Source: an uncultured Bryobacterales bacterium
GTDB lineage: Bacteria > Acidobacteriota > Terriglobia > Bryobacterales > UBA6623
Length of the DNA: 64,000 nucleotides
NCBI GenBank assembly: GCA_958295955.1
Contig: OY282420.1
Coordinates: forward strand, 726,236 to 790,235
Direction: 5' to 3'
Shown piece after piece: positions 1 through 46,016 of the stretch. The translations under genes and the position numbers were made by a program. A model generated the notes under the pieces. The model did no database searches, was not told where the DNA came from, and worked only from the letters and a program-made list of their open reading frames with translations. Position 1 is the stretch's first letter. Each line of letters starts with the position of its first letter.

Positions 1-1571
<1,571 letters not shown>

Positions 1572-4583: not shown

Positions 4584-4786
4584 GGTTTTGGGCTTTCGCC
4601 GTTGTCCGCCCATTGTTTCCGCGCACGGACGCTGCAACGAGAACGCAACGTTCAGGCCGGGCGGTTACACGGCGAGCCGCGGCCTTTGCCCTTCTGGAGT
4701 CGAAACGCGCTGCACGACCGCTATGACGGGAACGGCGCCGTCCGAGAGATGGGCGGCAAGCGCACCGCGAACCGATCAAGCCGCTC

Positions 4787-8770: not shown

Positions 8771-8790
8771 GGTTGCCTCCTTTCTCGATA

Positions 8791-8819
8791 ATTATAGCCC
8801 GTAGCGCAACAGAAGTCAA
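8791..8819 (-). promoter_or_regulatory. Near-consensus sigma70-type promoter for the 1327-aa gene: -35 TTGACT (8819-8814), 17-nt spacer, -10 TATAAT (8796-8791); SD AGGAGG at 8781-8776, 5 nt before ATG 8770
   Basis: Read directly on the minus strand: TTGACTtctgttgcgctacgggcTATAATtatcgagaaAGGAGGcaaccATG. Confidence 0.6.
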
Positions 8820-14265: not shown

Positions 14266-14372
14266 ATATCAATGAGTTGAGAAGTTTGTTGTCGTTTCGG
14301 GGCCATGCCGTCGGTGCAGCGCGGCGGAAACCGGGCATATCAATGAGTTGAGAAGTTTGTTGTCGTTTCGGG
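14266..14372 (+). repeat. CRISPR-like minimal unit: perfect 36-bp direct repeat x2 (14266-14301, 14337-14372) separated by a unique 35-bp spacer
   Basis: Read directly. The repeat is ATATCAATGAGTTGAGAAGTTTGTTGTCGTTTCGGG (AT-rich) and the spacer is GCCATGCCGTCGGTGCAGCGCGGCGGAAACCGGGC (GC-rich). AT-rich sequence lies upstream (about 14240-14265). There are only two repeats, no third copy at a +/-71 bp offset, and no cas genes in the window. Confidence 0.9.
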
Positions 14373-14520
14373 AGATACCCTCGGGGGGCGCGGACATGGC
14401 CGGCGGCCGGCGGGAGCAATCGGCTGCGGGCGCGCCGCCGCCGCGGACCGCCTGACAGGGAATTTCCCGCATCTCGAATTTCCTGACCCGGCGCCGCGGT
14501 TTTGCTAACCTCTCGAAGAC

Positions 14521-16404
14521 ATGCGCGCGCCGACCGTTCTCGCTACGCTTCTCTTTGCCGCGGCTCTCGCTTGCGGCCCTCAGGCAGACGCTCCCGATGC
14601 CGGCAGCGTCTCGATTACGCACGGCCCCTCGCTGGGCCGCTTGGGGACAAACCATATCGGCGTCTGGGCGCGCACTTCCAGAGCGGCCGCCTTCAACGTT
14701 TTCTACGGCGACGCCCCGGACCGGCTGACGTCCGCGGCGACCGTGCAAACCGATCCGGCAAACGACAACACCGGCTGGGCGCTGATCGAAGGTCTCGCGG
14801 CCGATACCAAATATTTTTACGAAGTCGGTTTGGGGGATGCGCCGGCGGGCGACGCGGAGCGTTCCGGGACGTTCCACACGCTGCCGGACGCCGCGGCGCT
14901 CGAGAGCGAGCACAATCCGCAGGGCCGCTACAACTTCCGCTTCGAGTTCGCCTGCGGCAACAATCAGAACCCCAGCGGAAGCCCGGTCGGCGCCGCGCTG
15001 ACGACTCACGGCACGATGCTCAAAACGCTGATCGGCCGCGAAGCCAAGAGCAAGATAGACTTCGCCATCCTCAACGGCGACTGGCTGTACGAGAACGAGT
15101 CGCGGCTCTACAACCCGGAGCAATGGCGCGCGCAGGCCGGCGTTGACGAGGCGGCGACGCCGCGCGTCGTGCGCCTGATGCCCAGCATCACCGGCGTCTG
15201 GGAGAACTACAAGGATTTCTTCAACAAGGGCAAGAATCTGCGCGACTGGCACCGCAACGTGCCCTCGTACTACACCTTCGACGACCACGAGCTGCTGAAC
15301 GATATCTACGGCTCGGCGGAGCCGGGCAGGCGCAACCGCCGCGCAGTCTTCCGCGACGTGGGCGCCATGGCGTGGTACGACTACCTCGCCTGGAGCAACC
15401 CGACGCCCGAAACCCGCGGCATTGTTTACGGCAAGGCGCAGTTGCAGGCCGGCAGCGATATCCTCACCGACCCCGAAGCGGACTTCACGGGGCTGGACCG
15501 AGAAGCGGCGCTGCACGTTCACTGGGGAACCCCGAATTGGGGCATGATGCTGCTCGACCCGAACCCCGACGGCAGCGACCCCGACGAAGTCGGCGGCGAC
15601 CCGAACTCCAAGGTTTACGAAATCGTCGAAGTCATCGACAAGAACAATTTACGCATCCGCCCCCCGGCCGAAGCGGACGGCTCGGCAACCTATTCCGTCG
15701 GGCGGCGCTCGTACTTCAAGATGCGCGTCGCCAATGCCGATTTCCTCTTCGTCGATACGCGCTCGTACCGCATGATGCACGACACCGCCGACCGCCGGAA
15801 ACAAGGCCGGACGATGCTGGGCGAAACTCAGAAGGCATGGCTCAAGTCCGAGATGAAAGCCTCCGACGCCGACTTTTTCTTCGTCGTCTCGTCGGTGAAT
15901 TTTTCGATTTCACACGTCGGCGGAACCGGGAACGCCAATATCTCGGAAGTCAACAAAGACGATGCCTGGACGGCGTTCCTGTGGGAACGCGAGGACTTGA
16001 TCGATTTCTGGGACGCCCTCGGCAAGCCGGTTTTCGTCTTGACCGGCGACTTGCACAACAGCTTCGCCATCAAGGTCACCGACCGGGTATGGGAATTCGC
16101 CTCCGGACCGCATAACTCGACCAACCATCCGCTGCGTTCGGAAGGCAACCGGCCGAATTCGGGGGACTACGATTCCTTCGGACGCAAGACCGAGATTCGC
16201 TGGTCGAGCTTCATCGTGAACGGCACGCCCAACGAATGGCGCAAGCGCCCCATTTACTGCGTGGCGCAGGTCAACAACGTATTCAACAATCCGACGGACG
16301 CAGGCGACCGCTGGGTGGCGTACAAGAATCCGCAGGCGGTTTTTCAGTACTTCGACGGGCTGACCGGCGATCTGCTGTACGCCGAATCGGTCGTGTCGCG
16401 CTGA
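14521..16404 (+). CDS. phoD: PhoD-like phosphatase (alkaline phosphatase D family), probable lipoprotein
   Basis: PhoD metallophosphatase-type motifs are FAILNGDWLYE, TFDDHELLNDIYGS and VLTGDLHNSFA. The N-terminus is LLFAAALACG. Confidence 0.8.
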   Translation: MRAPTVLATLLFAAALACGPQADAPDAGSVSITHGPSLGRLGTNHIGVWARTSRAAAFNVFYGDAPDRLTSAATVQTDPANDNTGWALIEGLAADTKYFYEVGLGDAPAGDAERSGTFHTLPDAAALESEHNPQGRYNFRFEFACGNNQNPSGSPVGAALTTHGTMLKTLIGREAKSKIDFAILNGDWLYENESRLYNPEQWRAQAGVDEAATPRVVRLMPSITGVWENYKDFFNKGKNLRDWHRNVPSYYTFDDHELLNDIYGSAEPGRRNRRAVFRDVGAMAWYDYLAWSNPTPETRGIVYGKAQLQAGSDILTDPEADFTGLDREAALHVHWGTPNWGMMLLDPNPDGSDPDEVGGDPNSKVYEIVEVIDKNNLRIRPPAEADGSATYSVGRRSYFKMRVANADFLFVDTRSYRMMHDTADRRKQGRTMLGETQKAWLKSEMKASDADFFFVVSSVNFSISHVGGTGNANISEVNKDDAWTAFLWEREDLIDFWDALGKPVFVLTGDLHNSFAIKVTDRVWEFASGPHNSTNHPLRSEGNRPNSGDYDSFGRKTEIRWSSFIVNGTPNEWRKRPIYCVAQVNNVFNNPTDAGDRWVAYKNPQAVFQYFDGLTGDLLYAESVVSR

Positions 16405-16481
16405 GAACGGCCCGCGGCCCGTCCATGCGCCCCTATCCATTCGAGTTGTATGATAAATTGACCGGCTTCGGAGAATCGGCT

Positions 16482-17015
16482 ATGAAAACCGCTCGGCTTC
16501 TATCGTTTGCATTCCTTTGCGCGCTGCTGTTACAGGCGGGCGACGTTCCGCGGGACGCGCCGGACTTGAAGCTCAAAACCACAACCGGCCGAACCGTGTC
16601 CCTGGCGGCGCTGAAGGGCAAAGTGGTGGCGGTGATGTGGCTTTCGACGGATTGCTCGCATTGCCAGCAAACCTCGGAGATGATCGGGCCGATCTACGAA
16701 GAACTGGCGCCCAAGGGCCTGGAGATTCTGGGCCTTGCGGTGAATCCGAATTCGCCGGGAAACATCGACGCTTTCGTGCGCAATCACGGCGTGAAATTCC
16801 CGATCGGAGTCTCGAACCGATCCGACTGGATGCGCTTTGCCGATTTGTCGGTGATGGCGCGGGCTTACGTGCCCTACATGATGATCGTCGACCGCAAAGG
16901 CGTCATTCGCCACGAGCATCCCGGCCGGGACCGCGTTTTCTGGGCCGATCAAGAGGCCAACATGCGCAAGGAATTCAGCGATCTGCTGGCCGAGAGCTCG
17001 GGTGCAAGCGATTAA
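16482..17015 (+). CDS. TlpA-family thiol:disulfide oxidoreductase (thioredoxin fold)
   Basis: It starts with the signal peptide MKTARLLSFAFLCALLL and has the CxxC motif CSHC within VVAVMWLSTDCSHCQ. The start was trimmed from track 16236. Confidence 0.8.
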   Translation: MKTARLLSFAFLCALLLQAGDVPRDAPDLKLKTTTGRTVSLAALKGKVVAVMWLSTDCSHCQQTSEMIGPIYEELAPKGLEILGLAVNPNSPGNIDAFVRNHGVKFPIGVSNRSDWMRFADLSVMARAYVPYMMIVDRKGVIRHEHPGRDRVFWADQEANMRKEFSDLLAESSGASD

Positions 17016-18087
17016 GGCGCCGGCGGCTGCGCGGCATCCCGCCGTCTTCGACCGCGAAGATTGGCTGCTCCCTTTCGTCCCCCTGATGCGTCATGGGGAT
17101 TTGCAGACTATCGCCGGGCGGTACTGGCCGACGGCGCCGGACGAGCGCCGCCGGCCCGCGCAGTCCCGGCTCTTTCGCACCGAAGCGGATACGCAGGTCT
17201 TGGCGCGGTTGAACCTGCAACGGACGGAATCCCGCGCCGGTCCGCGTCCGACCGTCCTGGCGGTGCATGGCCTCACGGCCTGCGACCGCGCCCCGTACAT
17301 GCTTGCCGCCGGCCGGCCGGCGCGGGAAGCCGGTTTCGACCTGATTCGGCTGAACGTCCGCAACTGCGGCGGCACCGAGCATTTGTCGCCGACCCTGTAC
17401 CATTCCGGACTCACTGTCGACCTGCGCTGCGTCGTCGAGCAACTCGCGCCGCGGCCGCTTTTCCTGCTGGGTTTCTCGATGGGCGGAAACATGGCGCTCA
17501 AGCTCGCCGGCGAATGGGGCGAGAACCCGCCGGAGCACGTCCGGGCGGCGTGCGCTATTTCGGCGCCGATCCGCCTGGACGTTTGCTCGCGGCATATCGG
17601 CAAGCCGCGCAACCGGATATACGAACGGCGGTTTCTGCGCCAACTGCGGGCGACGATGATGCGCAAGAGCCGCTGCATGCCCGAGCGCTATCCCCAACCC
17701 GATTTTTCGGACGTCGATTCGATTTGGAAATTCGACGACAAGTTCACCGCGCCGAGCTTTGGGTTCCGCGACGCGGCCGACTATTACGCCCGCTGTTCGG
17801 CCGCGGGGTTTCTGGAGCGCATTCGCGTCCCCGCGCTCGCGATTCAGGCCGAGGACGACCCGTTCATTCCGTTCGACGCGTTCCGCGACCGGGTATTCGC
17901 AACCAACCCGTGGATTCGACTCTTGGCCCAGCCTCATGGAGGGCATGTCGCCTTCCTGTCCCGCCAAGGCGCGCGTTTCTGGGCGCAGGCGCAGGCCATC
18001 CGCTTTTTCGAGGCGGTCGGGCGTTCGGACCGAGACAAACCGGCTATTGAATCGTCGAGCTCCCTTCCATGCCCAGCGGCGCCGTAG
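17002..18087 (+). CDS. Alpha/beta hydrolase (YheT-like)
   Basis: The nucleophile elbow is GFSMGGN. HGDLQTI sits near the N-terminus and AEDDPFIP near the C-terminus. Confidence 0.75.
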   Translation: MQAIKAPAAARHPAVFDREDWLLPFVPLMRHGDLQTIAGRYWPTAPDERRRPAQSRLFRTEADTQVLARLNLQRTESRAGPRPTVLAVHGLTACDRAPYMLAAGRPAREAGFDLIRLNVRNCGGTEHLSPTLYHSGLTVDLRCVVEQLAPRPLFLLGFSMGGNMALKLAGEWGENPPEHVRAACAISAPIRLDVCSRHIGKPRNRIYERRFLRQLRATMMRKSRCMPERYPQPDFSDVDSIWKFDDKFTAPSFGFRDAADYYARCSAAGFLERIRVPALAIQAEDDPFIPFDAFRDRVFATNPWIRLLAQPHGGHVAFLSRQGARFWAQAQAIRFFEAVGRSDRDKPAIESSSSLPCPAAP

Positions 18088-18655
18088 TCACGTTCCGGTT
18101 CACGTGCTTGTCCAGGTCGATGACGTAGGTTTCGGGCGCGGAGAGCAACTGCGGGGAATGGGTCGCCGCCACGATGCGGAACCCCTTTTGATCGACGAGT
18201 TCCTTGAGCATCTTGAGAATGCGGCGCTGGTTCGACGGCGATAAGGCCATCTCCGGCTCGTCGAGCAGCAGCACCGAACCTTCCGGCAGAGCAGGAAACG
18301 TCTGTTGGAACAACGACAACATCACCTGGCCGTGACTGGCGCTGTGAATAAACTCGCGCATTGCCGGATCGTCGTCGAACAGTTCCGGCTTATTGCGCGG
18401 ATTGTGCTGCTCGGCATCGAATAGCAGCACCTTGGCCCAGGCTTGCCCTCGCCTGTCGAGCTTGTACGCGAAATTGTCGATGTCCTCTCCGCGCAGGGCG
18501 TAGTAGATGGAATGCAGCAGCGTCGATTTCCCCGATCCGTTCTCGCCCGCCAACATAACCAGCGGGTGCGACAAGTCCACGATCATCGGCATGTGGAAGT
18601 TGAGATTCATGAAAATCGGATGGGTCAGAATCTTGAGAAACATCTTCCCCAGCAT
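18044..18655 (-). CDS. Compact stand-alone ABC/SMC-type ATPase (about 203 aa)
   Basis: It has Walker A GENGSGKST, a signature-like SHGQ, Walker B LLLDEPE and an H-loop ATHSP. The start was trimmed to MLGKMFLK at 18655. It overlaps the convergent hydrolase gene by 44 bp. Confidence 0.75.
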   Translation of the reverse strand: MLGKMFLKILTHPIFMNLNFHMPMIVDLSHPLVMLAGENGSGKSTLLHSIYYALRGEDIDNFAYKLDRRGQAWAKVLLFDAEQHNPRNKPELFDDDPAMREFIHSASHGQVMLSLFQQTFPALPEGSVLLLDEPEMALSPSNQRRILKMLKELVDQKGFRIVAATHSPQLLSAPETYVIDLDKHVNRNVTTAPLGMEGSSTIQ

Positions 18656-18788
18656 AGCCTGTAGTCCTCTAATGAAACCGGCAGCGCGGCGGCGTCCGCT
18701 AAAATAACGGCTTCGCGTGCGATTCGGCGCCGCGCGGCATTCGCCGGCCGAGACGCGGGCGCCGTCACGCCGGCGGCACAAGACCGCG

Positions 18789-19598
18789 ATGCCGGAAAAG
18801 CTCACAATCACGGTTCTCGGATCGGGAACCAGCGTCGGAGTGCCTACCATCGGCTGCCCCTGCGCGGTCTGCCGCTCCGACGACCCCCGCGATAAACGCC
18901 TGCGCCCGTCGGTAGTTGTCGGCTACCGCTCGGGCGGCGCGCAGCGCAACGTGCTCATCGACACGACCCCCGACCTCCGCCGGCAAGCGCTCGACTCCGG
19001 CCTCAAGAGCCTCGACGCGATCCTCTATACGCACGATCACGCCGACCACATCATGGGCCTGGACGACGTCCGCCCGTTCAACTACCGGCGACGGGAGCGC
19101 CTGCCCATATACGCCGCGCAGGAGACGCTGCGCTCGTTGCGCCGCGTGTTTCCGTATGCGTTTGCGGGCGAATCCGCCCATCCCGGAGGCGTTCCGCGCC
19201 TGACGGCCAACGAGATCGACGGCTCGCTGCTCAGCAGCGGGAGCATCGACCTGTTCGGTTTGCAATTCAAGCCGGTCAAGGTGCGCCACGGCCCGAAGAA
19301 CATCGTGGGTTTTCGTTTCGGAAACGCCGCGTACATTACCGATCAGACCGGGTTCCCGGACGAATCGCTGCCGCTGCTCACGGATCTGGACGCGCTCTTT
19401 CTCGGCGCCTTGCGGCACGTCCCGCATCCGATGCACTCGACCGTCGAGCAGGCGCTGGGCTGGGTCGCGCGTCTCCGGCCGCGGCGCGCCTTTTTCACGC
19501 ATATCTGCCACGACCTGGGACACGCGGAAACCAACGCCGGCCTGCCCCCGGGCGTTGCGCTGGCCTACGACGGGCTGCGCGTTCAGGTGGAAGAGTAA
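18789..19598 (+). CDS. MBL-fold metallo-hydrolase (PhnP-like)
   Basis: It reads LTITVLGSGTSVGVP and HDHADH (the HxHxDH motif). The start was trimmed to MPEKL at 18789. Confidence 0.8.
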   Translation: MPEKLTITVLGSGTSVGVPTIGCPCAVCRSDDPRDKRLRPSVVVGYRSGGAQRNVLIDTTPDLRRQALDSGLKSLDAILYTHDHADHIMGLDDVRPFNYRRRERLPIYAAQETLRSLRRVFPYAFAGESAHPGGVPRLTANEIDGSLLSSGSIDLFGLQFKPVKVRHGPKNIVGFRFGNAAYITDQTGFPDESLPLLTDLDALFLGALRHVPHPMHSTVEQALGWVARLRPRRAFFTHICHDLGHAETNAGLPPGVALAYDGLRVQVEE

Positions 19599-19604
19599 CC
19601 GGCG

Positions 19605-20573
19605 ATGGCTGCAAATTTTTACCGCATCGAGGAGTTGCCGGCGGGGTTCGGCCCATGCTCGCTGACGATCGGAAATTTCGACGGCGTACACCGCGGGCAC
19701 CAGGCGATCTTGCTGCGCGTGATCGCGCGCGCCCGCCGGCTGAAAATCGAATCGGCGGCGCTCACTTTCGACCCGCATCCGCTGGCGGTCGTAGCCCCCG
19801 AGCAGACCCCGCGGATATTGACGACCGTCAACGAGCGCGCGCGGCGGATTCGCGAGCTCGGCATCGACCGCGTTGTCGTCCTGCCGTTCACTCGCGAACT
19901 TTCGCGACTGACTCCCGCCGAGTTCGTGCGGCAAACGATCGTGGGCAAGCTCGCGGCGCGGCACGTCACCGTCGGAGACAACTTCCGCTTCGGGCGCCGC
20001 CAGGCGGGCGATGCGCATGAGTTGCAGCGCCTGGGCAAGGAGCTCGGCTTCGCCGTCGAAGCCGTCCCCGCAATCGAAATCGCGGGCGGCGTGGCCAGCA
20101 GCTCGCGCTTGCGCGAGGTCGCGGCGCGCGGGGAGATGCGCACCGCCCGGCGTCTGCTCGGCAGGCCGTTTTCGCTCTCCGGCAGAATCGTTCGCGGCGC
20201 AGGCATCGGCTCCAGGCAAACCGTTCCCACGCTGAACCTGGAACCCGACTCGCAGGCGCTTCCCGCGGACGGCGTTTACGTCTCGCTGACCAAAGACGCG
20301 GGCGGCGGCCGCTGCCGGGAGTCAATCAGCAATGTCGGCGTGCGGCCTACGTTCGACGGCGCCGGGCGCACCGTGGAGACCTACGTCCTCAACGAGCTTG
20401 GCGGCGAATTTCCCAAAGCCATCGAGCTGTATTTCCTGCGCCGGATTCGAGCCGAGCGGCGGTTCGCATCGGCGGAGCATCTGAAAACGCAAATTTTGAC
20501 CGACGTGCGGCTTGCCGAGCGTTATTTTGCGAAGCTCCGCTCCGTCCGCAATACGCCGGCCGCCGTTTCGTGA
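19605..20573 (+). CDS. ribF: Bifunctional riboflavin kinase / FMN adenylyltransferase
   Basis: It carries [11 protein letters not shown], a C-terminal riboflavin kinase region (PADGVY, TVETY), and is 322 aa long. Confidence 0.9.
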
Positions 20574-20616
20574 CGCCGCGAACGGGCCGGCCGGTATTGC
20601 TAAACTGGCAGACGCC

Positions 20617-22377: not shown

Positions 22378-22401
22378 CCGGGCGCCGTCTTCGGAAAACC
22401 G

Positions 22402-24759: not shown

Positions 24760-24900
24760 TATGGGAATTTCCCTCTCTGGCTCCGGGAGCAGAAGACGCC
24801 CTGCCGAAATCCCAAGCTAACAGTATTTGCAAATGGATCGCAAGTAATTTTTTTGTAACGGCATTTCAAGCCGCGGCCGCGGCTCGGTTAGCATGGTCGA

Positions 24901-25893: not shown

Positions 25894-25933
25894 CGGAACA
25901 GGTTTTCGCGCGAGCGCCTATGATGGATGGACG

Positions 25934-27028
25934 ATGAGAAGCGGAATGCGCATCGACCGCAAGACGACCTTGACCGCCGCCCTGCTCGTTTTGGGCTGGG
26001 CCGCCGTTTCGGTTGACGGCGGCCCCGGCGTCCGCGCCGCGTCAACGTCCGGGCAGGTCTCCGACACGCACGTTTTCGACGAGGTTGCGCCGGGCGTTTA
26101 TTTCGCCGCGGGCACGGGCGCGCTCAACGTCGCCAGCAACGCCATGGTCGTCGTCAACGAAGAAGACGTCGTGGTCGTCGATTCGCACATTACGCCCGAC
26201 GCGGCGCGCGCGCTGATCCAATCCGTGAAGGCCGTTTCCGCAAAGCCGATCCGCTACCTGATCAACAGCCACTTCCACTTCGACCACGCGCACGGCAACC
26301 AGGCGTTCCCCGAGGGGGTCGAGATCATCGGCCACGAGTACACCCGCGAGCGGCTGCTGGGGAACGTCCTGGACGAGCCCACCTACCGCGTGATCGGCAG
26401 CCCTCCGGCGCAGCGGAAGATCATCGCCGCCCTGGAGTCGCAACTGGACGGCGCAACGGGAAAAGCCCGCGAGTCGCTGCAACTGCGCATCGCGGCGCTC
26501 GAACGCCACGTCAAAGCTCTGGGCGAAGTGAGGCCCACGCCGCCGACGATTACGCTCAAGCACAAGATGACCCTGTTCCGCGGGTCGCGCGAAATCAGGA
26601 TTCTGCACTTGGGCCGCGCACACACGGGCGGAGACGTTGTCGTTTACCTGCCCGCCGAAAAAATCCTGTTCACCGGAGACTTGTTTTACGACGGCCCGCC
26701 CTATCTCGGGGATTCTTTCCCGGAGGAATTCGTTGCCGCGCTGGAGAGACTCAAGGCTATCGAGTTCGAGACGATTGTGCCCGGCCACGGCCCGCTGGTC
26801 CGCGACCCGCGAAAGATCGGCGTCCGCCAGGACTACATTCGACGCTACCGCAGCGAGGTTTCCGCGCTGCGCAAACAGGGGCTTTCCGCCGAAGAGGCCG
26901 CGGCGCGCCTGAGCTTTGCCGGATTCGGCCACTACCCCGGCCTCGAATCCCGCAACCGCGGAACCGTGGGACTGGAAATCCGCCGCATGTACCAAGAGCT
27001 CGAGGGCAAGCGAGTATCTGCAAGATGA
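25934..27028 (+). CDS. MBL-fold metallo-hydrolase (beta-lactamase-like), secreted
   Basis: It has INSHFHFDHAHGN (the HxHxDH motif) and a signal-like N-terminus. Confidence 0.8.
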   Translation: MRSGMRIDRKTTLTAALLVLGWAAVSVDGGPGVRAASTSGQVSDTHVFDEVAPGVYFAAGTGALNVASNAMVVVNEEDVVVVDSHITPDAARALIQSVKAVSAKPIRYLINSHFHFDHAHGNQAFPEGVEIIGHEYTRERLLGNVLDEPTYRVIGSPPAQRKIIAALESQLDGATGKARESLQLRIAALERHVKALGEVRPTPPTITLKHKMTLFRGSREIRILHLGRAHTGGDVVVYLPAEKILFTGDLFYDGPPYLGDSFPEEFVAALERLKAIEFETIVPGHGPLVRDPRKIGVRQDYIRRYRSEVSALRKQGLSAEEAAARLSFAGFGHYPGLESRNRGTVGLEIRRMYQELEGKRVSAR

Positions 27029-27504
27029 CGAAGATCCAAAGGATGCATGGGCTTTTAGCCCTTTTATTTCTGGCCGGCGCGTCGGGGGATGCAGCGATTA
27101 AGCCGGATTGGTCGAAGGTGCGGGCGATACAGCCCGGAAGAGTAGCCGTCGTGCTGTTGTACGAAGATGCGGCTCCCGCGGGAAGTCGGAAGATCAAAGG
27201 ACTCTTCAGCTCGGCCACCGACGAATCCGTCACGCTCGCCATGAAGAACGGGCAATCGCGCACAGCAGAGAAACGCGCCGTACGCAAGGTGCTGGTTCGC
27301 CGCCCGTTCGCGAAACGATACCTGGGATGGATTGCCGCGGGAGTGTCCGCCGCAGTCATAGAACTGGGATTGAGCGATGATCTGTCTGCCGAGGCTCGCA
27401 TCCTCCACGCAGCGGTCACGCTCCCCGCCGCCGCCCTTCTTTTCTACGGTTCGCGGATGGGAGGGGTTTACAATGTGCCGCCCAAGCACAGGAGTTCTCC
27501 GTAG
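27025..27504 (+). CDS. Hypothetical secreted/membrane protein
   Basis: 159 aa, with a signal-like N-terminus LLALLFLAGASG and a 4-bp ATGA overlap with the upstream gene. No family recognised. Confidence 0.55.
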   Translation: MTKIQRMHGLLALLFLAGASGDAAIKPDWSKVRAIQPGRVAVVLLYEDAAPAGSRKIKGLFSSATDESVTLAMKNGQSRTAEKRAVRKVLVRRPFAKRYLGWIAAGVSAAVIELGLSDDLSAEARILHAAVTLPAAALLFYGSRMGGVYNVPPKHRSSP

Positions 27505-27881
27505 CGGGGAGGCTCTCGATCTTGAGTTCCCCTTTCCGCGGACCCCGGGCAACACGGCGTTCCGATTGTCGGCCTGCGGGCGCTGCCCGCCGGCAGAATG
27601 CGTTGGCCGGCGGGGCGGCCGTCGTAAAGCCCTTTGAGGAAGTTCCTCCAGGCGCGGTATTTGTGGATCTCGTCGAAAAACCAGAACGCGCCCGGCGGCA
27701 GCTCGCGGCGCAGGATCCGCCCCCGGTGATCGGGGATATCCCAGTTCAGGTAGCCGCTCCGCGCGCCGGGCAACGACAGTCCCAACGTCGTCTTCCCGAC
27801 CTGCCCGGGGCCGGCAATGAAGGCCGGCTTGCCGGCAATATCCGCCTCGACCCGTTCCCGCAGGTAGCGCCGCTCCAACAC
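27468..27881 (-). pseudogene. Truncated AAA ATPase (AAA_14/DUF4143-type) N-terminal remnant
   Basis: It contains P-loop GPGQVGKTT, YLNWD and FFDEIHKYRAWRNFLKGLYD as in the about 390-aa family. The ORF ends after 137 aa, and the available space up to the neighbouring gene is too short for a full copy. Confidence 0.6.
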
Positions 27882-27972
27882 GCTTTGAATTTACAGACAA
27901 ATTCACCCTCTGGGAAATATATCCGCAGATTTTTTTGACTGGGGTGAAATTGTTTGCGCCGGGGCTAAACGC

Positions 27973-29178: not shown

Positions 29179-29181
29179 TCC

Positions 29182-39448: not shown

Positions 39449-39505
39449 GAAAGCTTCTCAGCGTAGCAGTCCGGCGGGCGGCGGCAGGCGGAGTAAAATT
39501 ACGGG

Positions 39506-40153
39506 ATGGCGCGCTGCGAGCGGCTTGCCGTCGATTTGCTGCGACCCGAGCGGGCGGTTGTCGCGCGGGCGGCCCGCGTCATCCGCGCCGGCGGCGTCGC
39601 GGCGGTCCCCACCGACACCTTGTACGGACTTGCGGCGGACCCGTTCAACGCAGCGGCGGTCAAGAAGCTGTTCCGCATCAAGCGCCGTCCCGAGAACATG
39701 CCGATCCTGCTGCTCGTGGACAGCCTGCAGCGCATGGAAAACCTGGTCGCGCGGACGCCGGAGGGTTTCCGCTCGCTTGCCGCGCGTTTCTGGCCGGGGC
39801 CGCTAACGATGATTCTGCCGGCCCGGCCGGGAGTTCCCTGCGCCGTGACGGCGGGATCGGGAACCGTTGCCGTCCGACTGCCGCGCAGCGCATTGATCCG
39901 CTCTCTGGTCCGCCTCGCGCGCCGCCCGCTGACCGGGACCAGCGCGAATCTCTCCGGGCGCGCCGGCGGCCGCTCGGCAGACGAAGCGGACCGGCAGTTG
40001 GGCGCTCTGCTCGACCTGCTGCTCGACGCGGGTTCGGCAAAACGGGCGCTGCCGTCGACGATCGTCGATCTCTCGGGGCGCGCGCCGCTGGTCGTGCGCT
40101 CGGGCGCGATTCCCGCGGCTGCGATTTTGCAGGCCGCGGCCCGCGGCGAATAA
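39506..40153 (+). CDS. tsaC: L-threonylcarbamoyladenylate synthase (YrdC/TsaC family)
   Basis: It has PTDTLYGLAADPFN, RIKRRPENMPILLLV and TSANLSG. Confidence 0.85.
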   Translation: MARCERLAVDLLRPERAVVARAARVIRAGGVAAVPTDTLYGLAADPFNAAAVKKLFRIKRRPENMPILLLVDSLQRMENLVARTPEGFRSLAARFWPGPLTMILPARPGVPCAVTAGSGTVAVRLPRSALIRSLVRLARRPLTGTSANLSGRAGGRSADEADRQLGALLDLLLDAGSAKRALPSTIVDLSGRAPLVVRSGAIPAAAILQAAARGE

Positions 40154-40224
40154 ATCCGCCGGGGCGCGTACCCCCGGTTTGTTTTCCAGCGCCTTGTACC
40201 AGTACAAGCCTAAGGAGGGCATGG

Positions 40225-40812
40225 ATGATGATTACGAGAAGAACGTTCTGGATGAACGCCGCGGCCGTGGCTGCGGGCGCGCGCCTGCTCCGCGCGGCCG
40301 GCGTGGACGGCAAATGGGAAGCGACGATCGAAAGCCCGATGGGGTCGACGACGATGACGTTCGACCTGAAAGCGGACGGCGAAATGCTGAGCGGCGCGGT
40401 CGCCAACGAGATGATGGGAAAATCCGAGATCGCGGACGGCAAGATCGAGGGAGACAAGGTTTCTTTCGTCCAGGTCATGCAGCGCGGCGAGCGGGAAATC
40501 AGATTTAAATACGAAGGTACGGTCTCGGGCGACGCAATGGAGCTTACCCGTTCGATGGTCCGCCCTGCCGGCGGAGCCCCCGGTCAACAGGGCGGAGGCG
40601 CCGGCAGAGCGCGCGGCGGCGGCCAAGGGCCGGGGGGCGGAAACCGCGGACCCGGAGGCGGCGGACGGCCGGGCGGCGGCGGTCAAGGCCAAGGCGGAAA
40701 CCGCGGCCCCGGAGGCGGCGGACAGCCGGGCGGTCGCGGTCAAGGCCAAGGCGGAAACCGCGGCGGCGGCATGGGCCGCCCCGTGACCTTTACCGCCAAG
40801 CGCGTGCAATAG
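40225..40812 (+). CDS. Secreted hypothetical protein with a Tat-like N-terminus and a Gly/Arg/Gln-rich low-complexity C-terminal region
   Basis: The N-terminus is MMITRRTFWMNAAAVAAGA, followed by a small globular domain and then GGQGPGGGNRGPGGGGRPGGGGQGQGGNRGPGGGGQPGGRGQGQGGNRGGG. Confidence 0.7.
   Translation: MMITRRTFWMNAAAVAAGARLLRAAGVDGKWEATIESPMGSTTMTFDLKADGEMLSGAVANEMMGKSEIADGKIEGDKVSFVQVMQRGEREIRFKYEGTVSGDAMELTRSMVRPAGGAPGQQGGGAGRARGGGQGPGGGNRGPGGGGRPGGGGQGQGGNRGPGGGGQPGGRGQGQGGNRGGGMGRPVTFTAKRVQ
40621..40770 (+). repeat. Coding tandem repeat, about 2.6 copies of a 57-60 bp unit (GGTCAAGGCCAAGGCGGAAACCGCGG...)
   Basis: Read directly. It encodes the GGNRGPGGGG repeats of the 40225..40812 protein. 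Confidence 0.85.
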
Positions 40813-40828
40813 CCGCGGGGCCGCTATC

Positions 40829-41569
40829 TCAATCGGCGGCGCAAAAGCGGCAGACCTCGCTCTTCGAGCCGGTTTCGATGGCGACTTTTTCGCCCGGGAA
40901 TTGGGGTTGGGTGTCGAGCACCCAGATGTCGAGCAGCGCTTGAACGCGCGCGCCGTATTCCCGCAGCCGCGCGTTCAGGCGCATCAATGTTGTCGGGTCT
41001 GCGGCGGCATAGCCCACGACGTTGAGGCCGCGGCGGCGTCCGATATAGACGGCGCGCAGCAAATGGAACCGTTGGGAGACGACGGTGAAAGCGTCCTGTC
41101 CGAAGACCTTGTGCGCGCGAATCACCGAATCGAGCGTTCGCAGTCCGGCGAAATCCAGGGTGATTTTGCTCGCGGGGACGCCCAGGTCGATCAGGTCGGC
41201 CTTCATGAAGCGGGGTTCGTTGTAATAGCGGCTCGGGTTTGCGCCGCTGGCGATGAGCCGGTTGACTTTGCCCCGATGGTAGAGGTCGGCGGCGGCTTCG
41301 ATGCGGGCGGTGTAGTAATCGTTCTTGCTGCCCGCGCGCGCATACGGCGCAGTGCCCAAGACGACGCCGACCCGGCGGTACGGCAGCGCATCGACGGAAT
41401 CGAAAACCCGTCGGCGGGACTGGTATTCGATGTAGGCGTCCGCCGCATAGATGCCGCCGACGAAGACAGCCGCGAGGATATAGACTGCCCGGCGGACGCG
41501 CCGCGTGAAGGTCCGCCGCGCCAAGGCGGACGCTCCGGCTCGAATACCGGCTGCGGCGTTACGCGGCAC
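40829..41569 (-). CDS. sanA: SanA/ElyC/YdcF (DUF218) family protein
   Basis: It has an N-terminal TM segment, then VVLGTAPY, YYNEPRFMKADLIDLGVP and ITLDFAGLRTLDSV. Confidence 0.8.
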   Translation of the reverse strand: MPRNAAAGIRAGASALARRTFTRRVRRAVYILAAVFVGGIYAADAYIEYQSRRRVFDSVDALPYRRVGVVLGTAPYARAGSKNDYYTARIEAAADLYHRGKVNRLIASGANPSRYYNEPRFMKADLIDLGVPASKITLDFAGLRTLDSVIRAHKVFGQDAFTVVSQRFHLLRAVYIGRRRGLNVVGYAAADPTTLMRLNARLREYGARVQALLDIWVLDTQPQFPGEKVAIETGSKSEVCRFCAAD

Positions 41570-41603
41570 CGCCCTTATAATAGTGGATAGTGGTTAGCGC
41601 ATA

Positions 41604-43058
41604 GTGGATAGCAAGACTGCTTTTGCCTGTCTTGCGGCGCTGGCGGTTTCGTGCGGCGGACCGGCGCCGCCGGGCTCGCCTGCCGAAAAGCCCAACTTCG
41701 TGGTTCTGCTGGCCGACGATCTGGGCTGGACGGACCTGGGCTGCTACGGCAGCGATCTTTACGAAACTCCCCATATCGACAGGCTGGCTGCCGACGGCGC
41801 GCGCTTTACGCACGGGTATGCCGCCTGCACTGTTTGCTCGCCGACGCGCGCGGCGATTTTGACGGGGATGTATCCCGGGCGCACCCACGTGACGGATTTC
41901 ATTACCGGCGGCGTGCGGCCGAAAGCGAAGCTGCGCATCCCCGATTGGACCATGCAGTTGGACCACCGCCACACGAGCCTGGCCGAGGCGCTGCGGGCGG
42001 CGGGATACCGCACGGCGCACGTCGGCAAGTGGCACTTGATGCCGCGCAACGAGCCGGACGCGATGATGGATTTCATGCCCGAGAAACACGGTTTCGAGAT
42101 CAATATCGGCGGCAACGAGTGGGGCGCGCCGGGTAGTTATTTCCATCCCTACAGCAATGCGCGGCGGAAGGTGGGGCCGCTGCCCGCGGGCGGCGCCGAC
42201 GGCGATTACCTCACGGACCGCCTCACCGATGAAGCGCTCAAGGTTCTCGAGGGGTTCGGCGATGAGCCGTTCTTCCTGTATTTCGCCTACTACGCGGTGC
42301 ATACGCCGCTTCAGGCGAAGCCGCAAGACATTGCCCGCTTCGAACCGAAAGCGCAGGAGGACGGGCGGCACCGTAATGCGACCTATGCGGCCATGATCGC
42401 CGGCCTGGACCGCAGCGTCGGCAGGCTGCGGTCGAAGCTCGAAGAGATGGGCGCCGCCGAGCGCACGGTCATCGTCTTCACCGGCGACAACGGGGGACTG
42501 GACCGCAAAGGCCCCGACGGCCGCATGGGGCATCCGACAGAGAACCACCCGCTGCGGGCGGGCAAAGGCTCGGCCTACGAGGGCGGCGTGCGCACGCCGG
42601 CGATCTATTACTGGCCGGGAGTGACGCGGGCGGGGTCGGTGAGCGCCGAGCCCGTAATTTCGGCGGACATTTACCCGACCGTTCTGGATATCGCCGGCGT
42701 TGCGGGAACGCCCGAGCACAACGCGAACGTGGACGGCGTCAGCCTGGCTCCGCTGCTGCGGGACGGGTCGGCCCCGCTCGGCCGCGAGGCGTTGTATTGG
42801 CACTATCCGCACTATCATTCCGGCGGGGCGACGCCGCATTCGGCGGTCCGCGCCGGTGACTGGCGGCTGGTGGAATTCTACGAGGACGACCGCGCCGAGC
42901 TCTACAACCTGAAGAACGATATCGGCGAGGAACGCGACCTGGCGGCGGAAATGCCGGAGAAGACGAAGGAACTGCGGCGCAAGCTGCGCGCTTGGCGCGC
43001 CGCGGTCGGGGCGCAGGAACCGACTCCCAATCCGGACTACGATCCGCGAGCGGAATGA
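41604..43058 (+). CDS. Sulfatase (Cys-type)
   Basis: It has CSPTRAAILTGMYPGR and NFVVLLADDLGWTD. The track gives an alternative start. Confidence 0.9.
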   Translation: MDSKTAFACLAALAVSCGGPAPPGSPAEKPNFVVLLADDLGWTDLGCYGSDLYETPHIDRLAADGARFTHGYAACTVCSPTRAAILTGMYPGRTHVTDFITGGVRPKAKLRIPDWTMQLDHRHTSLAEALRAAGYRTAHVGKWHLMPRNEPDAMMDFMPEKHGFEINIGGNEWGAPGSYFHPYSNARRKVGPLPAGGADGDYLTDRLTDEALKVLEGFGDEPFFLYFAYYAVHTPLQAKPQDIARFEPKAQEDGRHRNATYAAMIAGLDRSVGRLRSKLEEMGAAERTVIVFTGDNGGLDRKGPDGRMGHPTENHPLRAGKGSAYEGGVRTPAIYYWPGVTRAGSVSAEPVISADIYPTVLDIAGVAGTPEHNANVDGVSLAPLLRDGSAPLGREALYWHYPHYHSGGATPHSAVRAGDWRLVEFYEDDRAELYNLKNDIGEERDLAAEMPEKTKELRRKLRAWRAAVGAQEPTPNPDYDPRAE

Positions 43059-43094
43059 TGGGCCGGTAACTCCCCGCAGAGGGATAGCGCCTCA

Positions 43095-46016
43095 ATGTGT
43101 GACACGCGTTCGATGACGGGCAAGGTCGTATCGCATTACCGCGTTCTGGAGCCTCTCGGCGAGGGCGGGATGGGCGTGGTGTACAAGGCCGAGGACACGC
43201 GGCTGAAACGCACGGTTGCGTTGAAGTTTCTGTCGTCGGAAGTGACCGGCGGCGGGGAATTCAAGGAACGATTCCTGCGCGAGGCGCAAGCCTCGGCCGC
43301 GCTGGACCACCCGAACATTTGCACCGTCTATGAAATCGACGAGGTCGAGGGGCAGACCTTTCTGTCGATGGCCTTTCTCGAGGGGGAAGCGCTGGACCGC
43401 ATCGTCGAGAAGGGGCCGTTGCCGCTCGACCGCGCGATTGCGATCGCCGTGCAGGCGGCGGAGGGACTTGCCGCGGCGCACGCCCAAGGCGTGGTCCACC
43501 GCGACGTCAAGTCGGCGAATATGATCGTCCGCGAAGACACGGCGGGGCGGCCGGTCGTGAAGTTGATGGACTTCGGGCTGGCTCAGATGAGCGGCCGCTC
43601 GAAGCTGACGCAGGTCGATACGCGCTTGGGCACGGTTGCCTACATGTCGCCCGAGCAGACGCAGGGCGGCACGGTGGACCGGCGCAGCGATCTCTGGTCG
43701 TTGGGCGTGGTGATTTACGAAATGGTCGCCGGGGAGTTGCCGTTCAAAGGCCACTACGACCAAGCCGTCATGTATTCGATTCTGAACGAGGAGCCGGCGC
43801 CGCTCACTTCTCTGCGGGGCGGCGTTCCGATGGAGCTCGAATGGATCGTCGAGAAGTGTCTGGCGAAGAACGCGAACGACCGCTACCAGAACGGCCGCGA
43901 GTTGGTCGTCGATCTTGAGCGTTTGCAGCGGCGGATCGATTCCGGAAAATCGGTCGTGCAGCCGCTGCCGGCCGCGGGCAGGACGGCGGTCGGCATACCG
44001 GCGCAGGCCGCGCAGCGCGGAACGCCGTTGCCGGCTGTTCTGGAGACGCAGGCGGCCGGGGAGGTTGCGGGCGCGGCGCCGCGCAGCGCCGACCGCTTGC
44101 GGATGCTGCGTCTGGAGCGGAGGGTGAAGGCGTTGGCCGCCGCGGCGGCGGTGTTGGCCGCGGCATTGCCGGCGACTTGGGCGTTGCGGTCCGGAGCTTC
44201 GGAATCTGCCGACGAGCCGCTGCGCAAGTTTTCGTTGCGGCCGGCGAACATTCTCGAACACGGGCAGAGCATCGGACACTTGGCGGTTTCCCCGGACGGC
44301 AGGCAGATCGCCTTTACAACCACCGGTTCGCGCGGGGCGTTGTGGCTGCAATCGCTGGACCGGCTGGAGCCCCGGCAAGTCGAGGGGGCCGAGGACGCCC
44401 GGTTCGTCTTTTGGTCTCCGGACAGCCTTTCCATCGGGTTTACGACCGACCGCTCCGTGAAGAAGGCGGCTTTGCGCGGCGGTTCCGTTACGACGCTTGC
44501 CGAGATCGGCACAAGGTTCTTCGGCGGCGCGCCTGCCAGTTGGAGTCCGGACGGGAATTCGGTTCTCCTGGGCCACGCCAACGGGTTTCCGTTCGAGATT
44601 CCGGCGCTTGGCGGGACCCCGAAACCGCTGTTCGATCCCGGGACGGGCGAACGCCCGGGCTACGTCCGCGCTCCGCAGATTCTCGAGGATTCGCGCGGCC
44701 GGCGGTTGCTGCTCTATTCGCAGCGCACCCTGGACGGCGAGACGATCATGATGCGCAGGCTGTCGGAGGACGGAGTCGGCGCCGCGGTGCGGCTGGCCGA
44801 GGGAAGCTATCCGACCTATTCGAACACCGGCCACGTTCTGTATCAGCCCTCGTCGGCAACCGCGGCGCTGTGGGCGCTGCCGGTTTCGCTGGATGAGGCG
44901 CAGGCGGTCGGCGAGGCGTTTCCGATTGCCGAAGACGGCAGCGCGGCGTCGGTTGCGGAAAACGGAACGCTCGTCTATCTGGACAATCCGTTCGCCGGGC
45001 CGAAGCAATTGGTCTGGCTCGACCGCTCGGGCGAGCGGGTCGGCGCAATCGGCAAGCCGCAACCCTGGATCATGGCGCCGCGGGTGTCCCCCGACGGCGC
45101 GAAACTGGTCGTCTCGGCAGGCTCCGCGCAGGTGCTGAACGTATGGGTTCACGATGCTTCGCGTCCCGTGATGAACCGCTTGAGTTTCGAAGACGGCGAA
45201 GAGACGGACGCAATTTGGTCTCCCGATGGGACCCGCGTGGCGTTCGCTCGGCGAGGGTCTCCCGATGTATTCGTTCAAAACATCGGCGGGGGGGGCAAGC
45301 AGCGGGTGATTTTTTCCGCTCCGGGAGATTTGCAGCCGCTCGACTGGTCACGCGATGGGCAATTCATTTTGTTCCGCATGCGCGTCCGTCGGGGCGCGCC
45401 GGGGCCCGGCGCTGCAAGAAAAGACGGGGCCGGACAGGAACGCGGCGACATGATCATGGATAGGTTGATGGAGAATTCCGTCGCTGCAAGAAAAGACGGG
45501 GCCGGACAGGAACGCGGCGGCGCGGGAATCTCTTCCGGGATCGGCTATCTCCGACAGGTTCCCGACGAGGAGCGCTGGGAGGCGCAGCAGTTCCTTGAAG
45601 CCGGGCGTTTCATCGCCGACGGCGCGGTGTTTTCCCCTAACGGCCGGTACGTAGCTTACGTGAGCAACGAATCCGGGGAATTCGAAGTTTATGTGAAGCG
45701 GTTCCCGGCGACGGAGGAGCGCTGGCAGATTTCAACGGACGGCGGGGGCGAGCCGCGGTGGAATCCGAACGGGCGGGAATTGTTCTTCGTGCGCGACGAG
45801 ACGCTTTACGCGGCAGCGGTCGGCACGGAGCGGAATTTTACTGTTGGCGAGACCGGCCCGCTGTTTTCCCGGGCGAGCTTGAGGCGGTCTCGGCGGTTTT
45901 CTTCGTACGATGTCGGCCCCGACGGGCGTTTTGCCGTGGTTGATCTGGCCGAAGGACCGCCGCAGCCGGCAATCCGGGTTGTCCTCAATTGGTTTGCGGA
46001 GTTTCAGCCCCGTTAA
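43095..46016 (+). CDS. Ser/Thr protein kinase fused to a TM segment and a TolB-like beta-propeller
   Basis: The Hanks kinase motifs are GEGGMGVVYKA, HRDVKSANM, DFGLA and YMSPEQ. The C-terminal repeats read SPDG/SPNGRYVAYVSNESGEFEVYV. Confidence 0.9.
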   Translation: MCDTRSMTGKVVSHYRVLEPLGEGGMGVVYKAEDTRLKRTVALKFLSSEVTGGGEFKERFLREAQASAALDHPNICTVYEIDEVEGQTFLSMAFLEGEALDRIVEKGPLPLDRAIAIAVQAAEGLAAAHAQGVVHRDVKSANMIVREDTAGRPVVKLMDFGLAQMSGRSKLTQVDTRLGTVAYMSPEQTQGGTVDRRSDLWSLGVVIYEMVAGELPFKGHYDQAVMYSILNEEPAPLTSLRGGVPMELEWIVEKCLAKNANDRYQNGRELVVDLERLQRRIDSGKSVVQPLPAAGRTAVGIPAQAAQRGTPLPAVLETQAAGEVAGAAPRSADRLRMLRLERRVKALAAAAAVLAAALPATWALRSGASESADEPLRKFSLRPANILEHGQSIGHLAVSPDGRQIAFTTTGSRGALWLQSLDRLEPRQVEGAEDARFVFWSPDSLSIGFTTDRSVKKAALRGGSVTTLAEIGTRFFGGAPASWSPDGNSVLLGHANGFPFEIPALGGTPKPLFDPGTGERPGYVRAPQILEDSRGRRLLLYSQRTLDGETIMMRRLSEDGVGAAVRLAEGSYPTYSNTGHVLYQPSSATAALWALPVSLDEAQAVGEAFPIAEDGSAASVAENGTLVYLDNPFAGPKQLVWLDRSGERVGAIGKPQPWIMAPRVSPDGAKLVVSAGSAQVLNVWVHDASRPVMNRLSFEDGEETDAIWSPDGTRVAFARRGSPDVFVQNIGGGGKQRVIFSAPGDLQPLDWSRDGQFILFRMRVRRGAPGPGAARKDGAGQERGDMIMDRLMENSVAARKDGAGQERGGAGISSGIGYLRQVPDEERWEAQQFLEAGRFIADGAVFSPNGRYVAYVSNESGEFEVYVKRFPATEERWQISTDGGGEPRWNPNGRELFFVRDETLYAAAVGTERNFTVGETGPLFSRASLRRSRRFSSYDVGPDGRFAVVDLAEGPPQPAIRVVLNWFAEFQPR
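45410..45519 (+). repeat. Perfect 38-bp direct repeat x2 (45410-45447, 45482-45519) flanking a unique 34-bp insert, in-frame inside the kinase-propeller gene
   Basis: Read directly. The repeat is CGCTGCAAGAAAAGACGGGGCCGGACAGGAACGCGGCG and the insert is ACATGATCATGGATAGGTTGATGGAGAATTCCGT. The 72-bp period equals 24 codons, and the protein shows AARKDGAGQERG twice. Confidence 0.9.

Follow-up and report, generated by a model that had tools for sequence, protein, structure and literature searches.

Repeat-insert-repeat modules with 36-38-bp target duplications in a Bryobacterales chromosome and their possible origin by off-target integration

Three modules, each made of a direct repeat, an insert and the same repeat again, lie within 31 kb of the window (the whole stretch of 64,000 nucleotides that was analysed, from an uncultured Bryobacterales bacterium), and the question they raise is what kind of event duplicated 36-38 bp of ordinary chromosome around a short piece of unrelated DNA on three occasions. 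In a preliminary description of the window, modules with repeats and inserts of 36/35, 37/45 and 38/34 bp and of unrelated sequence had been listed, and integration by a CRISPR adaptation module or by another integrase with a ruler of that length had been proposed. All three modules (M1, M2 and M3) were recovered as exact repeats (Table 1), and their distribution among strains, relatives and more distant genomes was then used to weigh the possible origins.

Geometry of the modules and their distribution among strains

The repeats and inserts of M1, M2 and M3 were mutually unrelated, and the duplication lengths agreed within 2 bp (36, 37 and 38). The near-identical geometry pointed out earlier was even more uniform than it had appeared, since the length of the M2 insert varies among strains (35, 45 or 55 bp); with the minimal M2 allele of 35 bp (L148), the inserts measured 34-35 bp, a length inside the general range of CRISPR spacers, and the period was 71 bp for M1 and 72 bp for both M2 and M3. 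The M3 repeat could be extended to 42 nt with one mismatch (starts at 45406 and 45478). No match of at least 13 nt to the repeats or inserts was found elsewhere in the window. As genomic sequence the repeat units are unremarkable; they matched no Rfam family or CRISPR repeat family, and folded no better than shuffled sequence. When the expectation from shuffled sequence, which the preliminary description had put forward as a check, was determined for the window only, 10 shuffles yielded zero pairs with at least 29/36 matches at spacings of 50-110 nt, by which a chance origin was ruled out. In an unbiased scan of the window, no interspersed near-exact repeats were found beyond M1-M3, but only two true tandem arrays (1704-1816 and 40636-40764), and the three modules were therefore not selected for their geometry.

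Table 1. Positions of the three modules and their parts in the window
Feature	Position	Strand	Basis
M1, whole module, 36/35/36 bp	14266-14372		
M1 left copy, 36-bp duplicated target (ATATCAATGAGTTGAGAAGTTTGTTGTCGTTTCGGG)	14266-14301		exact direct repeat
M1 insert, 35 bp, 77% GC, unique	14302-14336		strain comparison
M1 right copy of duplicated target	14337-14372		identical to 14266-14301
M2, whole module, 37/45/37 bp	34361-34479		
M2 copy beside the RraA-like gene, 37-bp duplicated target	34361-34397		exact repeat; L004-L008 have one such junction
M2 insert, 45 bp in the window, 3.5 copies of the 10-nt unit TTCGCTTTCC	34398-34442		sequence and strain comparison
M2 second copy of duplicated target	34443-34479		exact repeat
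M3, whole module, 38/34/38 bp	45410-45519		
M3 left copy, 38-bp duplicated target, encodes AARKDGAGQERG	45410-45447	+	exact direct repeat
M3 insert, 34 bp, AT-rich	45448-45481	+	orthologue comparison
M3 right copy of duplicated target	45482-45519	+	identical to 45410-45447

M1 is intergenic; it is flanked by two divergent genes, one of the glyoxalase family on the minus strand (13812-14198) and one for a PhoD-like phosphatase on the plus strand (14521-16404). The segment duplicated there is AT-rich and belongs to the promoter region. The site was single-copy and without the insert in seven strains of ~99% identity (s344 (L001/L063/L154), L151 and L155-L159), and the insert was present with 1-2 SNPs in L152 and L153. 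In the JGI metagenome relatives and L160, examined as outgroup, synteny was lost just upstream of the PhoD gene, and the SNP haplotypes around M1 were mosaic and gave no polarity. For M1 the comparison thus shows within-species absence only, and a precise loss between the repeats is as possible as a recent gain.

M2 lies at an operon junction. On the minus strand, the copy beside the RraA-like gene (33689-34378) contains TAA, 8 nt and then the functional ATG of this gene, and in the second copy lie the stop codon used by the U32-like gene (34469-35371, minus strand) and a duplicate of the RraA start codon that is now orphaned. The module was filled in all nine genomes examined (listed as the window, L003, L145-L150 and L148); the insert measured 35 bp in L148 and 55 bp in L149 and L150, and the 45-bp form of the window was shared by L003 and L145-L147. 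This variation is slippage of the 10-nt unit; since the number of copies changes once the insert is in place, it is not necessarily a trace of how the insert arose. An empty site with one repeat copy and no insert was found in the relatives L004-L008 (83-91% identity).

M3 is situated within a gene for a Ser/Thr kinase with a PD40 propeller (43095-46016), in agreement with the earlier remark that such sites include coding sequence. The insert and one repeat copy together lengthen the gene by 72 bp without a shift of frame, so that 24 codons (DMIMDRLMENSV and a second AARKDGAGQERG) are added to what is a variable loop of the kinase. The insertion was present in seven full-length members of the protein cluster and in two fragments, encoded on different contigs, and the insert of L147 carried one SNP; cluster members of 949 and 943 aa were without it, and the empty, single-copy site was found in L002 and 13 more distant of 15 orthologues.

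The insertions M2 and M3 are derived: relatives at 80-91% identity have one copy of the repeat at these sites and no insert. Comparative genomics, suggested in the preliminary description for polarising the insertions, thus served for these two modules, whereas for M1 it gave within-species absence only. M1 and M3 are polymorphic, filled in some strains and empty in others. The source data are metagenome long-read assemblies, from which artefacts of assembly or sequencing might be suspected; however, all three modules were found with SNPs on several independently assembled strain contigs, which differ by ~1% and have SNPs and length variants of their own within the modules, and the M3 insertion recurs in the cluster members and fragments from different contigs mentioned above. 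The artefact reading is effectively refuted by these variant copies, and its probability is practically negligible.

When all indels of at least 6 nt were surveyed in 17 strain loci (8.5-56 kb compared), the remaining indels were short slippage, tandem copy-number changes, one microhomology deletion and island swaps, and the modules form a discrete class among them. No exact module of this geometry was found in 1.02 Mb of Bryobacterales and other Acidobacteriota relatives or in 0.95 Mb of more distant genomes (~1.97 Mb for both sets), and the modules were shown to be restricted to the lineage of the source species.

Insert donors, integrase genes and known systems

The inserts of M1-M3 gave no matches in pattern scans of IMG/VR and chance-level matches only in BLASTN searches of GenBank phages. 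A local templated origin of the inserts was rejected, there being no seed of at least 13 nt in the window and no significant match in 1.1 Mb of loci. Motifs at the repeat boundaries, named in the preliminary description as a further check, were sought at the junctions of M1-M3, and none was common to the three target sites in any orientation at either junction, a comparison that has low power with three sites; the ends of the inserts had no motif in common either. No cas gene or CRISPR array was found in the window or in ~2.4 Mb of strain and relative loci, the search for cas genes covering selected window ORFs (Pfam and PADLOC) and the called genes of the strain loci; for the selected ORFs, this bears out the earlier remark that the window is free of cas genes. 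The left end of the window is a strain-variable defence island.

A structure of related form was present in the relative L008, in which a unit of 27-28 nt occurs three times at one site, the copies being set apart by two inserts of 32-33 nt at a period of 60. At this site L005 has a single copy; the polarity of the mini-array rests on these two genomes. A geometry of 28/32 is classical for CRISPR. For the L008 spacers, the only match in IMG/VR and GenBank phages was a contiguous 22-23/33 nt for one spacer, which was judged to be chance or a shared coding motif and was rejected as a donor.

A repeat of ~36-37 bp with a spacer of ~35 bp is in the usual range for several CRISPR subtypes, and in this repeat-spacer-repeat layout the modules resemble canonical CRISPR arrays and orphan or virus-borne mini-arrays. 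They differ in that the repeat of each module is its own local sequence (promoter region, stop/start junction or coding loop) and in having two copies only, no leader, no adjacent cas genes and no Rfam match. A canonical CRISPR array was rejected on the grounds that there was no shared repeat family and no cas gene nearby. With transposons and casposons the modules have in common a direct target duplication flanking inserted DNA, which in these elements results from staggered strand transfer. The target-site duplications of these elements are 2-15 bp; those of the modules were 36-38 bp, as the preliminary description had emphasised, and the inserts of 34-45 bp had no common termini or inverted repeats and encode nothing. 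A transposable element was rejected accordingly, the inserts sharing no sequence and the duplications not being 15 bp or less. Tandem duplication produces head-to-tail copies without unique filler. Local direct repeats are a feature of slippage too, and the 10-nt unit of M2 does behave in this way, but the filler of the modules bears no relation to the sequence on either side and does not occur in the empty alleles. Simple tandem duplication was rejected for the unique filler of 34-45 bp missing from these alleles, and the argument made earlier that tandem duplications carry no such inserts therefore stands.

The closest resemblance is to neo-CRISPR loci. Off-target Cas1-Cas2 integration with duplication of a repeat length is documented in E. 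coli (Nivala et al. 2018, as presented in PMC7054753, PMC6698737 and bioRxiv 10.1101/148544). According to the same sources, the duplications measured ~28 bp in E. coli over-producing type I-E Cas1-Cas2, and the natural neo-CRISPR cases treated in that work were circumstantial only (Nivala, Shipman & Church 2018, Nat Microbiol 3:310). As far as these accounts describe them, neo-CRISPR loci share with the present modules a spacer-sized insert flanked by a repeat-length duplication of ordinary chromosomal sequence, mutually unrelated inserts and sites away from any array, the L008 site even having a second insert. Unlike the loci described there, the present modules are natural, polymorphic in a wild population and of 36-38 bp instead of ~28 bp, one is in frame within a gene and one at an operon junction, and cas genes were not seen in the searched loci.

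Candidate mechanisms

The derived state of M2 and M3, the uniform geometry of the modules, the absence of such modules from ~1.97 Mb of other genomes and the position of M3 in coding sequence together favour a ruler set by a protein over slippage or an ordinary transposon. To our knowledge, the only enzyme with such a spacing is Cas1-Cas2, the complex of CRISPR adaptation, which attacks at two sites one CRISPR repeat apart, and the modules are therefore read as ectopic spacer acquisitions. We regard it as somewhat more probable than not that they are scars of the neo-CRISPR type, left when a Cas1-Cas2-type integrase with a ruler of ~36 bp carried out full-site integration off target; which integrase was at work and where the inserts came from is what we infer in this reading. 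Each module would correspond to one full-site integration of a DNA fragment of ~35 bp, in which the integrase would attack the two chromosome strands 36-38 bp apart and repair of the two single-stranded gaps would duplicate the intervening target to give target, insert and target. The adaptation module involved would normally serve arrays in which repeats of ~36-37 bp alternate with spacers of ~35 bp. In this reading, the events that have survived are only those that do no harm: M1 is intergenic, M2 sits at an operon junction, where the duplication restores the stop codon of the upstream gene as well as the start codon of the downstream one, and M3 adds 72 bp in frame to a variable loop. After insertion the modules have evolved as ordinary DNA through SNPs, slippage of the 10-nt unit of M2 and presence or absence among strains. 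The L008 site lends independent support, with a different ruler in a different genome, as genome-specific CRISPR repeat lengths predict. As regards the adaptation hypothesis of the preliminary description, unique spacer-sized DNA with a target duplication of 36-38 bp speaks for it, whereas no cas gene or array in the searched loci, no protospacer and no shared motif was found. A further point against the Cas1-Cas2 reading is that three surviving events in 31 kb represent a density far above that reported for off-target acquisition.

The same structural evidence, namely a fixed duplication length, unique inserts and a derived state, would be produced by a non-CRISPR integrase or a nuclease-repair system that makes staggered breaks of ~36 bp and captures short DNA, be it a solo Cas1-like, a casposase-like or an undescribed enzyme. 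Such a system would agree with the negative search for cas genes and with a density unusual for a CRISPR side reaction, and the defence island at the left end of the window makes novel systems plausible in the lineage. Nevertheless, we know of no enzyme outside CRISPR adaptation that makes such breaks with capture of short DNA, the duplications of casposases are only ~14-15 bp, there was no candidate gene in the window, and the 28/32 geometry of L008, where one site has taken up two inserts in succession, speaks for genuine adaptation complexes in the clade; this explanation is considered unlikely. Accidents of replication or repair, in which template switching or end joining of breaks with filler DNA duplicated 36-38 bp three times, are to be rated as quite improbable. 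Filler-containing duplications occur in many organisms, no integrase was identified in the searched loci, and slippage-prone synthesis could yield an internally repetitive insert such as that of M2, although the copy number of its 10-nt unit changes after insertion and need not record the making of the insert. Against such accidents stand three independent events with duplications within 2 bp of each other and units of 71-72 bp, inserts not copied from nearby sequence and, in the window, the 17 strain loci and 1.97 Mb of other genomes, no filler duplication of any other length. Selection for function, as two-repeat mini-CRISPR arrays or regulatory duplications, might be suspected from the promoter-region segment in M1 and from the fixation of M2 in the nine genomes; yet there is no relation among the three repeats, no match to a CRISPR repeat family and no significant fold, M1 and M3 are polymorphic, and the positions of M3 in a protein-coding loop and of M2 at a stop/start junction fit tolerated insertions better, so that a functional role is very improbable.

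Meaning for the source species

The evidence for off-target spacer integration comes mainly from E. coli over-producing Cas1-Cas2, and the process may also shape natural genomes and found new CRISPR arrays. The window provides three natural candidate events. Related species have the empty site for M2 and M3, and strains found together in one metagenome have empty alleles for M1 and M3. What survived selection was an insertion between genes, a duplication of a stop/start junction and an in-frame insertion of 24 residues in a protein.

It is possible, though rather unlikely, that the source species carries an unusually promiscuous ruler-integrase, CRISPR-derived or not, that peppers the chromosome with units of ~72 bp and seeds new CRISPR arrays. 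If this were true and the window typical, a genome of 4.4 Mb would hold on the order of a couple of hundred units, and the integrase would create protein insertions and operon-junction duplications; the L008 site, with its second insert, may then display the next step, the birth of a CRISPR array in a wild population. If the genome were without Cas1, an unknown integrase with a 36-bp ruler would be implied, which would be still more surprising. If the species' own array has repeats of ~36 bp, the scars would be a direct readout of the cost and specificity of adaptation in the wild, and also a new source of protein indels.

Geometry and setting of the modules

The entire window was scanned without bias for near-exact direct repeats at most 200 nt apart, and only the three repeat-insert-repeat modules M1, M2 and M3 and two true tandem arrays were obtained; the common geometry was thus not due to the modules having been picked by eye, and the further instances thought possible in the preliminary description did not appear. 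The modules themselves, described there as nearly identical in geometry, were found at the same positions with exact repeats, and the likeness was strengthened by added units (insert plus one repeat copy) of 71, 72 and 72 bp for M1, M2 and M3, respectively, taking the shortest M2 allele. The M3 repeat comprises 42 nt with one mismatch when begun at 45406 and 45478. In a shuffle comparison of the kind proposed earlier, repeat pairs matching at 29 or more of 36 positions with comparable spacing were absent from all 10 shuffled versions of the window, and none of the repeats or inserts occurred a second time elsewhere in the window.

M1 is intergenic, with a glyoxalase-family gene and a PhoD-like phosphatase gene pointing away from it on either side. 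M2 lies where two minus-strand genes, U32-peptidase-like and RraA-like, meet; its repeat holds the stop codon of the former, then 8 nt, then the start codon of the latter, and both genes are still intact despite the duplication. M3, the event previously supposed inside coding sequence, adds 24 in-frame codons to the gene for a Ser/Thr kinase (973 residues, including a PD40 beta-propeller; protein recorded on a 4,441,625-bp contig in NCBI and ENA). The GACCCGGCGCCGCGGTTTTGCTAACCTCTCGAAGAC sequence directly upstream of the PhoD start codon was conserved in locus L160, and its core, TTTGCTAAYCTCTC, in metagenome relatives (74-84% protein identity) even without upstream synteny; a role in regulation or ribosome binding is likely.

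Coordinates of features in the window and in comparison loci
Feature	Locus	Position	Details
M1 repeats	window	14266-14301 and 14337-14372	36 nt, exact; insert 35 nt
M2 repeats	window	34361-34397 and 34443-34479	37 nt, exact; insert 45 nt
M3 repeats	window	45410-45447 and 45482-45519	38 nt, exact; insert 34 nt
Low-GC defence island	window	1-8800	
True tandem array	window	1704-1816	three 40-nt units
SoFic gene	window	1811-2983	defence island
Type I restriction specificity subunit	window	3186-4583	defence island
Helix-turn-helix protein	window	4787-8770	minus strand; 1327 residues; defence island
GACCCGGCGCCGCGGTTTTGCTAACCTCTCGAAGAC	window	14484-14520	
Strain-variable segment	window	27011-27694	
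AAA_14 remnant	window	27468-27881	minus strand; truncated, 137 residues
Site of 2-kb insertion in strain s344	window	29672-29695	
AT-rich intergenic stretch	window	36291-37340	1 kb
True tandem array	window	40636-40764	57-nt in-frame repeat, 2.3 copies, glycine-rich ORF
Diverged repeat pair	L055	2179-2319	
Mini-array	L008 (OZ243965.1)	6352-6499	
Single copy of mini-array unit	L005	~6320-6347	
Partial match to mini-array insert	L064 (IMGVR_UViG_3300042691_049817)	10586-10607	

Variation among strains and relatives

One long-read metagenome (ENA ERZ19489113) contained at least 10 co-occurring strains of this uncultured Bryobacterales (Acidobacteriota) species at ~99% identity, and the closest other species were Bryobacterales MAGs with 80-91% protein identity. 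M2 was present in 9 of 9 genomes examined, with an insert of 35 bp (L148), 45 bp (window, L003 and L145-L147) or 55 bp (L149 and L150), a 10-nt unit being repeated 2.5, 3.5 or 4.5 times, respectively, and one repeat copy in L148 had a point mutation. The M1 insert differed by 1-2 SNPs between carriers and the M3 insert by a SNP in one strain; the 949- and 943-residue members of the protein cluster, elsewhere at least 99% identical, had no M3. Because independent contigs carry their own variants of the modules, an assembly artefact was excluded.

The polarity of the events, for which comparative genomics had been suggested, was settled for M2 and M3, whose sites are empty in relatives. In a protein alignment with 15 orthologues, the 24-residue M3 insertion was restricted to the window and P0001, the 99%-identical protein of a conspecific strain; the AARKDGAGQERG segment was single-copy in all 13 more distant orthologues, and the relative L002 (88-90% DNA identity) had one copy of the 38-42-bp repeat without the insert. 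The M2 site in the five closest relatives (L004-L008) was a single junction of stop codon, ~9 nt and start codon. In M1, carried by three genomes (window, L152 and L153), the 36-bp sequence was single-copy and the 71-bp addition missing in seven strains of ~99% identity; gain and precise loss are indistinguishable here, since the intergenic region was kept in no outgroup examined and the flanking SNPs form a recombined mosaic.

The window was compared with 17 strain loci spanning 8.5-56 kb, and all indels of at least 6 nt were recorded. Besides M1-M3, these consisted of slippage by 6-12 nt, one microhomology deletion of 87-95 nt, swaps of whole gene islands, and gain or loss of copies in a glycine-rich tandem repeat. 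Against L002, the 72-bp M3 unit was the biggest indel over 16 kb and the sole duplication with filler. Sequence from 58 related genomes (1.02 Mb in all) and from more distant genomes (0.95 Mb) held no exact module of this geometry, and M1-M3 are a discrete indel class confined to the lineage of the window. The nearest approaches in those genomes were a mini-array in L008 and a pair in L055 (a Terriglobia MAG). The latter, diverged 37-nt direct repeats (34/37 identical) with 67 nt of unique sequence inserted between them, could represent an earlier event of this type; even with it as background, ~0.03 such modules would be expected per 64 kb by our own arithmetic.

Other parts of the window also varied or held repeats. 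The defence island at its left end is strain-variable, and in other same-species strains SIR2_2-domain (SIR2-like) proteins fill its final slot ahead of the sulfatase gene. The 40-nt tandem units, which directly precede and include the start codon of the SoFic-type Fic gene, resemble an operator or start region present in triplicate: units 1 and 2 contain a palindrome with 8-bp arms, TTAAAGGC-T-GCCNTTAA, followed by AACATGGA (palindrome exact in unit 2, with one mismatch in unit 1 and degraded in unit 3). The glycine-rich array varied in copy number between strains, deletions of 45 nt and 60 nt occurring in L146, L147 and L150. Relative to L063 and L145, the window is without the 2-kb insertion of strain s344, which carries genes for MT-A70 and N6/N4 DNA methyltransferases. 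In several strains the variable segment holds an intact AAA_14/DUF4143 gene, in place of which the window has the AAA_14 remnant and a different 159-residue ORF. The AT-rich stretch (genome 64% GC) could be what is left of a foreign gene; it shows small indels from strain to strain, and L145-L147 have a ~87-95-nt deletion there, flanked by 8-nt microhomology.

A mini-array in a relative

The L008 mini-array consists of three exact copies of the 27-28-nt GGTTCTTCCGTAGCGCCGGGGGCCGAC spaced by two unique 32-33-nt inserts (period 60 in both), and it lies immediately upstream of a small lipoprotein-like ORF. L005 has homologous flanks on both sides and one copy of the unit, which gave no Rfam family match and no significant fold; no cas genes were found within 10 kb of the mini-array. 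With polarity taken from these two genomes, it looks like the same process as in M1-M3 with another ruler (the fixed spacing between the two strand attacks of an integrase), the classical 28/32, and two successive acquisitions at this one site, and it is possibly a two-spacer neo-array. L064 contains 22-23 nt exactly matching a portion of one L008 insert; this match was judged not to be a protospacer, as it stops short of the full 33-nt insert and reads as a Gly/Ile/Ala-rich coding motif.

Origin of the modules

Repeats of 36-37 bp with spacers of ~35 bp are ordinary geometry in several CRISPR subtypes. To our knowledge, a spacing of 36-38 bp occurs among known enzymes only in Cas1-Cas2, whose two attack sites are one repeat apart. 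Off-target integrations with exactly the structure of M1-M3 have been observed in E. coli (Nivala et al. 2018, as cited in PMC7054753, PMC6698737 and bioRxiv 10.1101/148544). In the best-supported mechanism, an integrase loaded with a ~35-bp fragment would attack both DNA strands 36-38 bp apart, the target would be duplicated by gap repair, harmless events alone would be kept by selection, and the scars would drift afterwards.

The preliminary description had invoked a CRISPR adaptation module, a casposase-like enzyme or another integrase; this is supported in part, the mark of a ruler-integrase being solid. Off-target integration by Cas1-Cas2 was judged only somewhat better than an even bet, because neither a cas gene nor a native array was found in the window, as noted before, or in any fetched locus, no donor of the inserts was found in IMG/VR, GenBank phages, the window or the fetched loci, no motif was common to the three target sites when their boundaries were compared as previously advised, and the density of surviving events, three in 31 kb, is high for a side reaction. 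These same points leave room for a non-CRISPR ruler-integrase of undescribed type, which we consider unlikely, and, next in falling order of probability, for coincident repair accidents, which are doubtful; a genome-specific ruler and the reuse of a newly made repeat, as L008 appears to show, are what Cas1-Cas2 would produce, unlike a generic repair accident. That the modules are functional elements under selection is very improbable, and artefact was given next to no weight.

The names on several relatives' records presumably come from marine sponge microbiome studies. CRISPR enrichment has been reported for sponge-associated microbial metagenomes (PMC5099237), to which the lineage of the window may be linked. 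The finding is best filed as a natural case of off-target spacer integration, a kind already known but scarcely documented, with a real chance that M1-M3 are something stranger.
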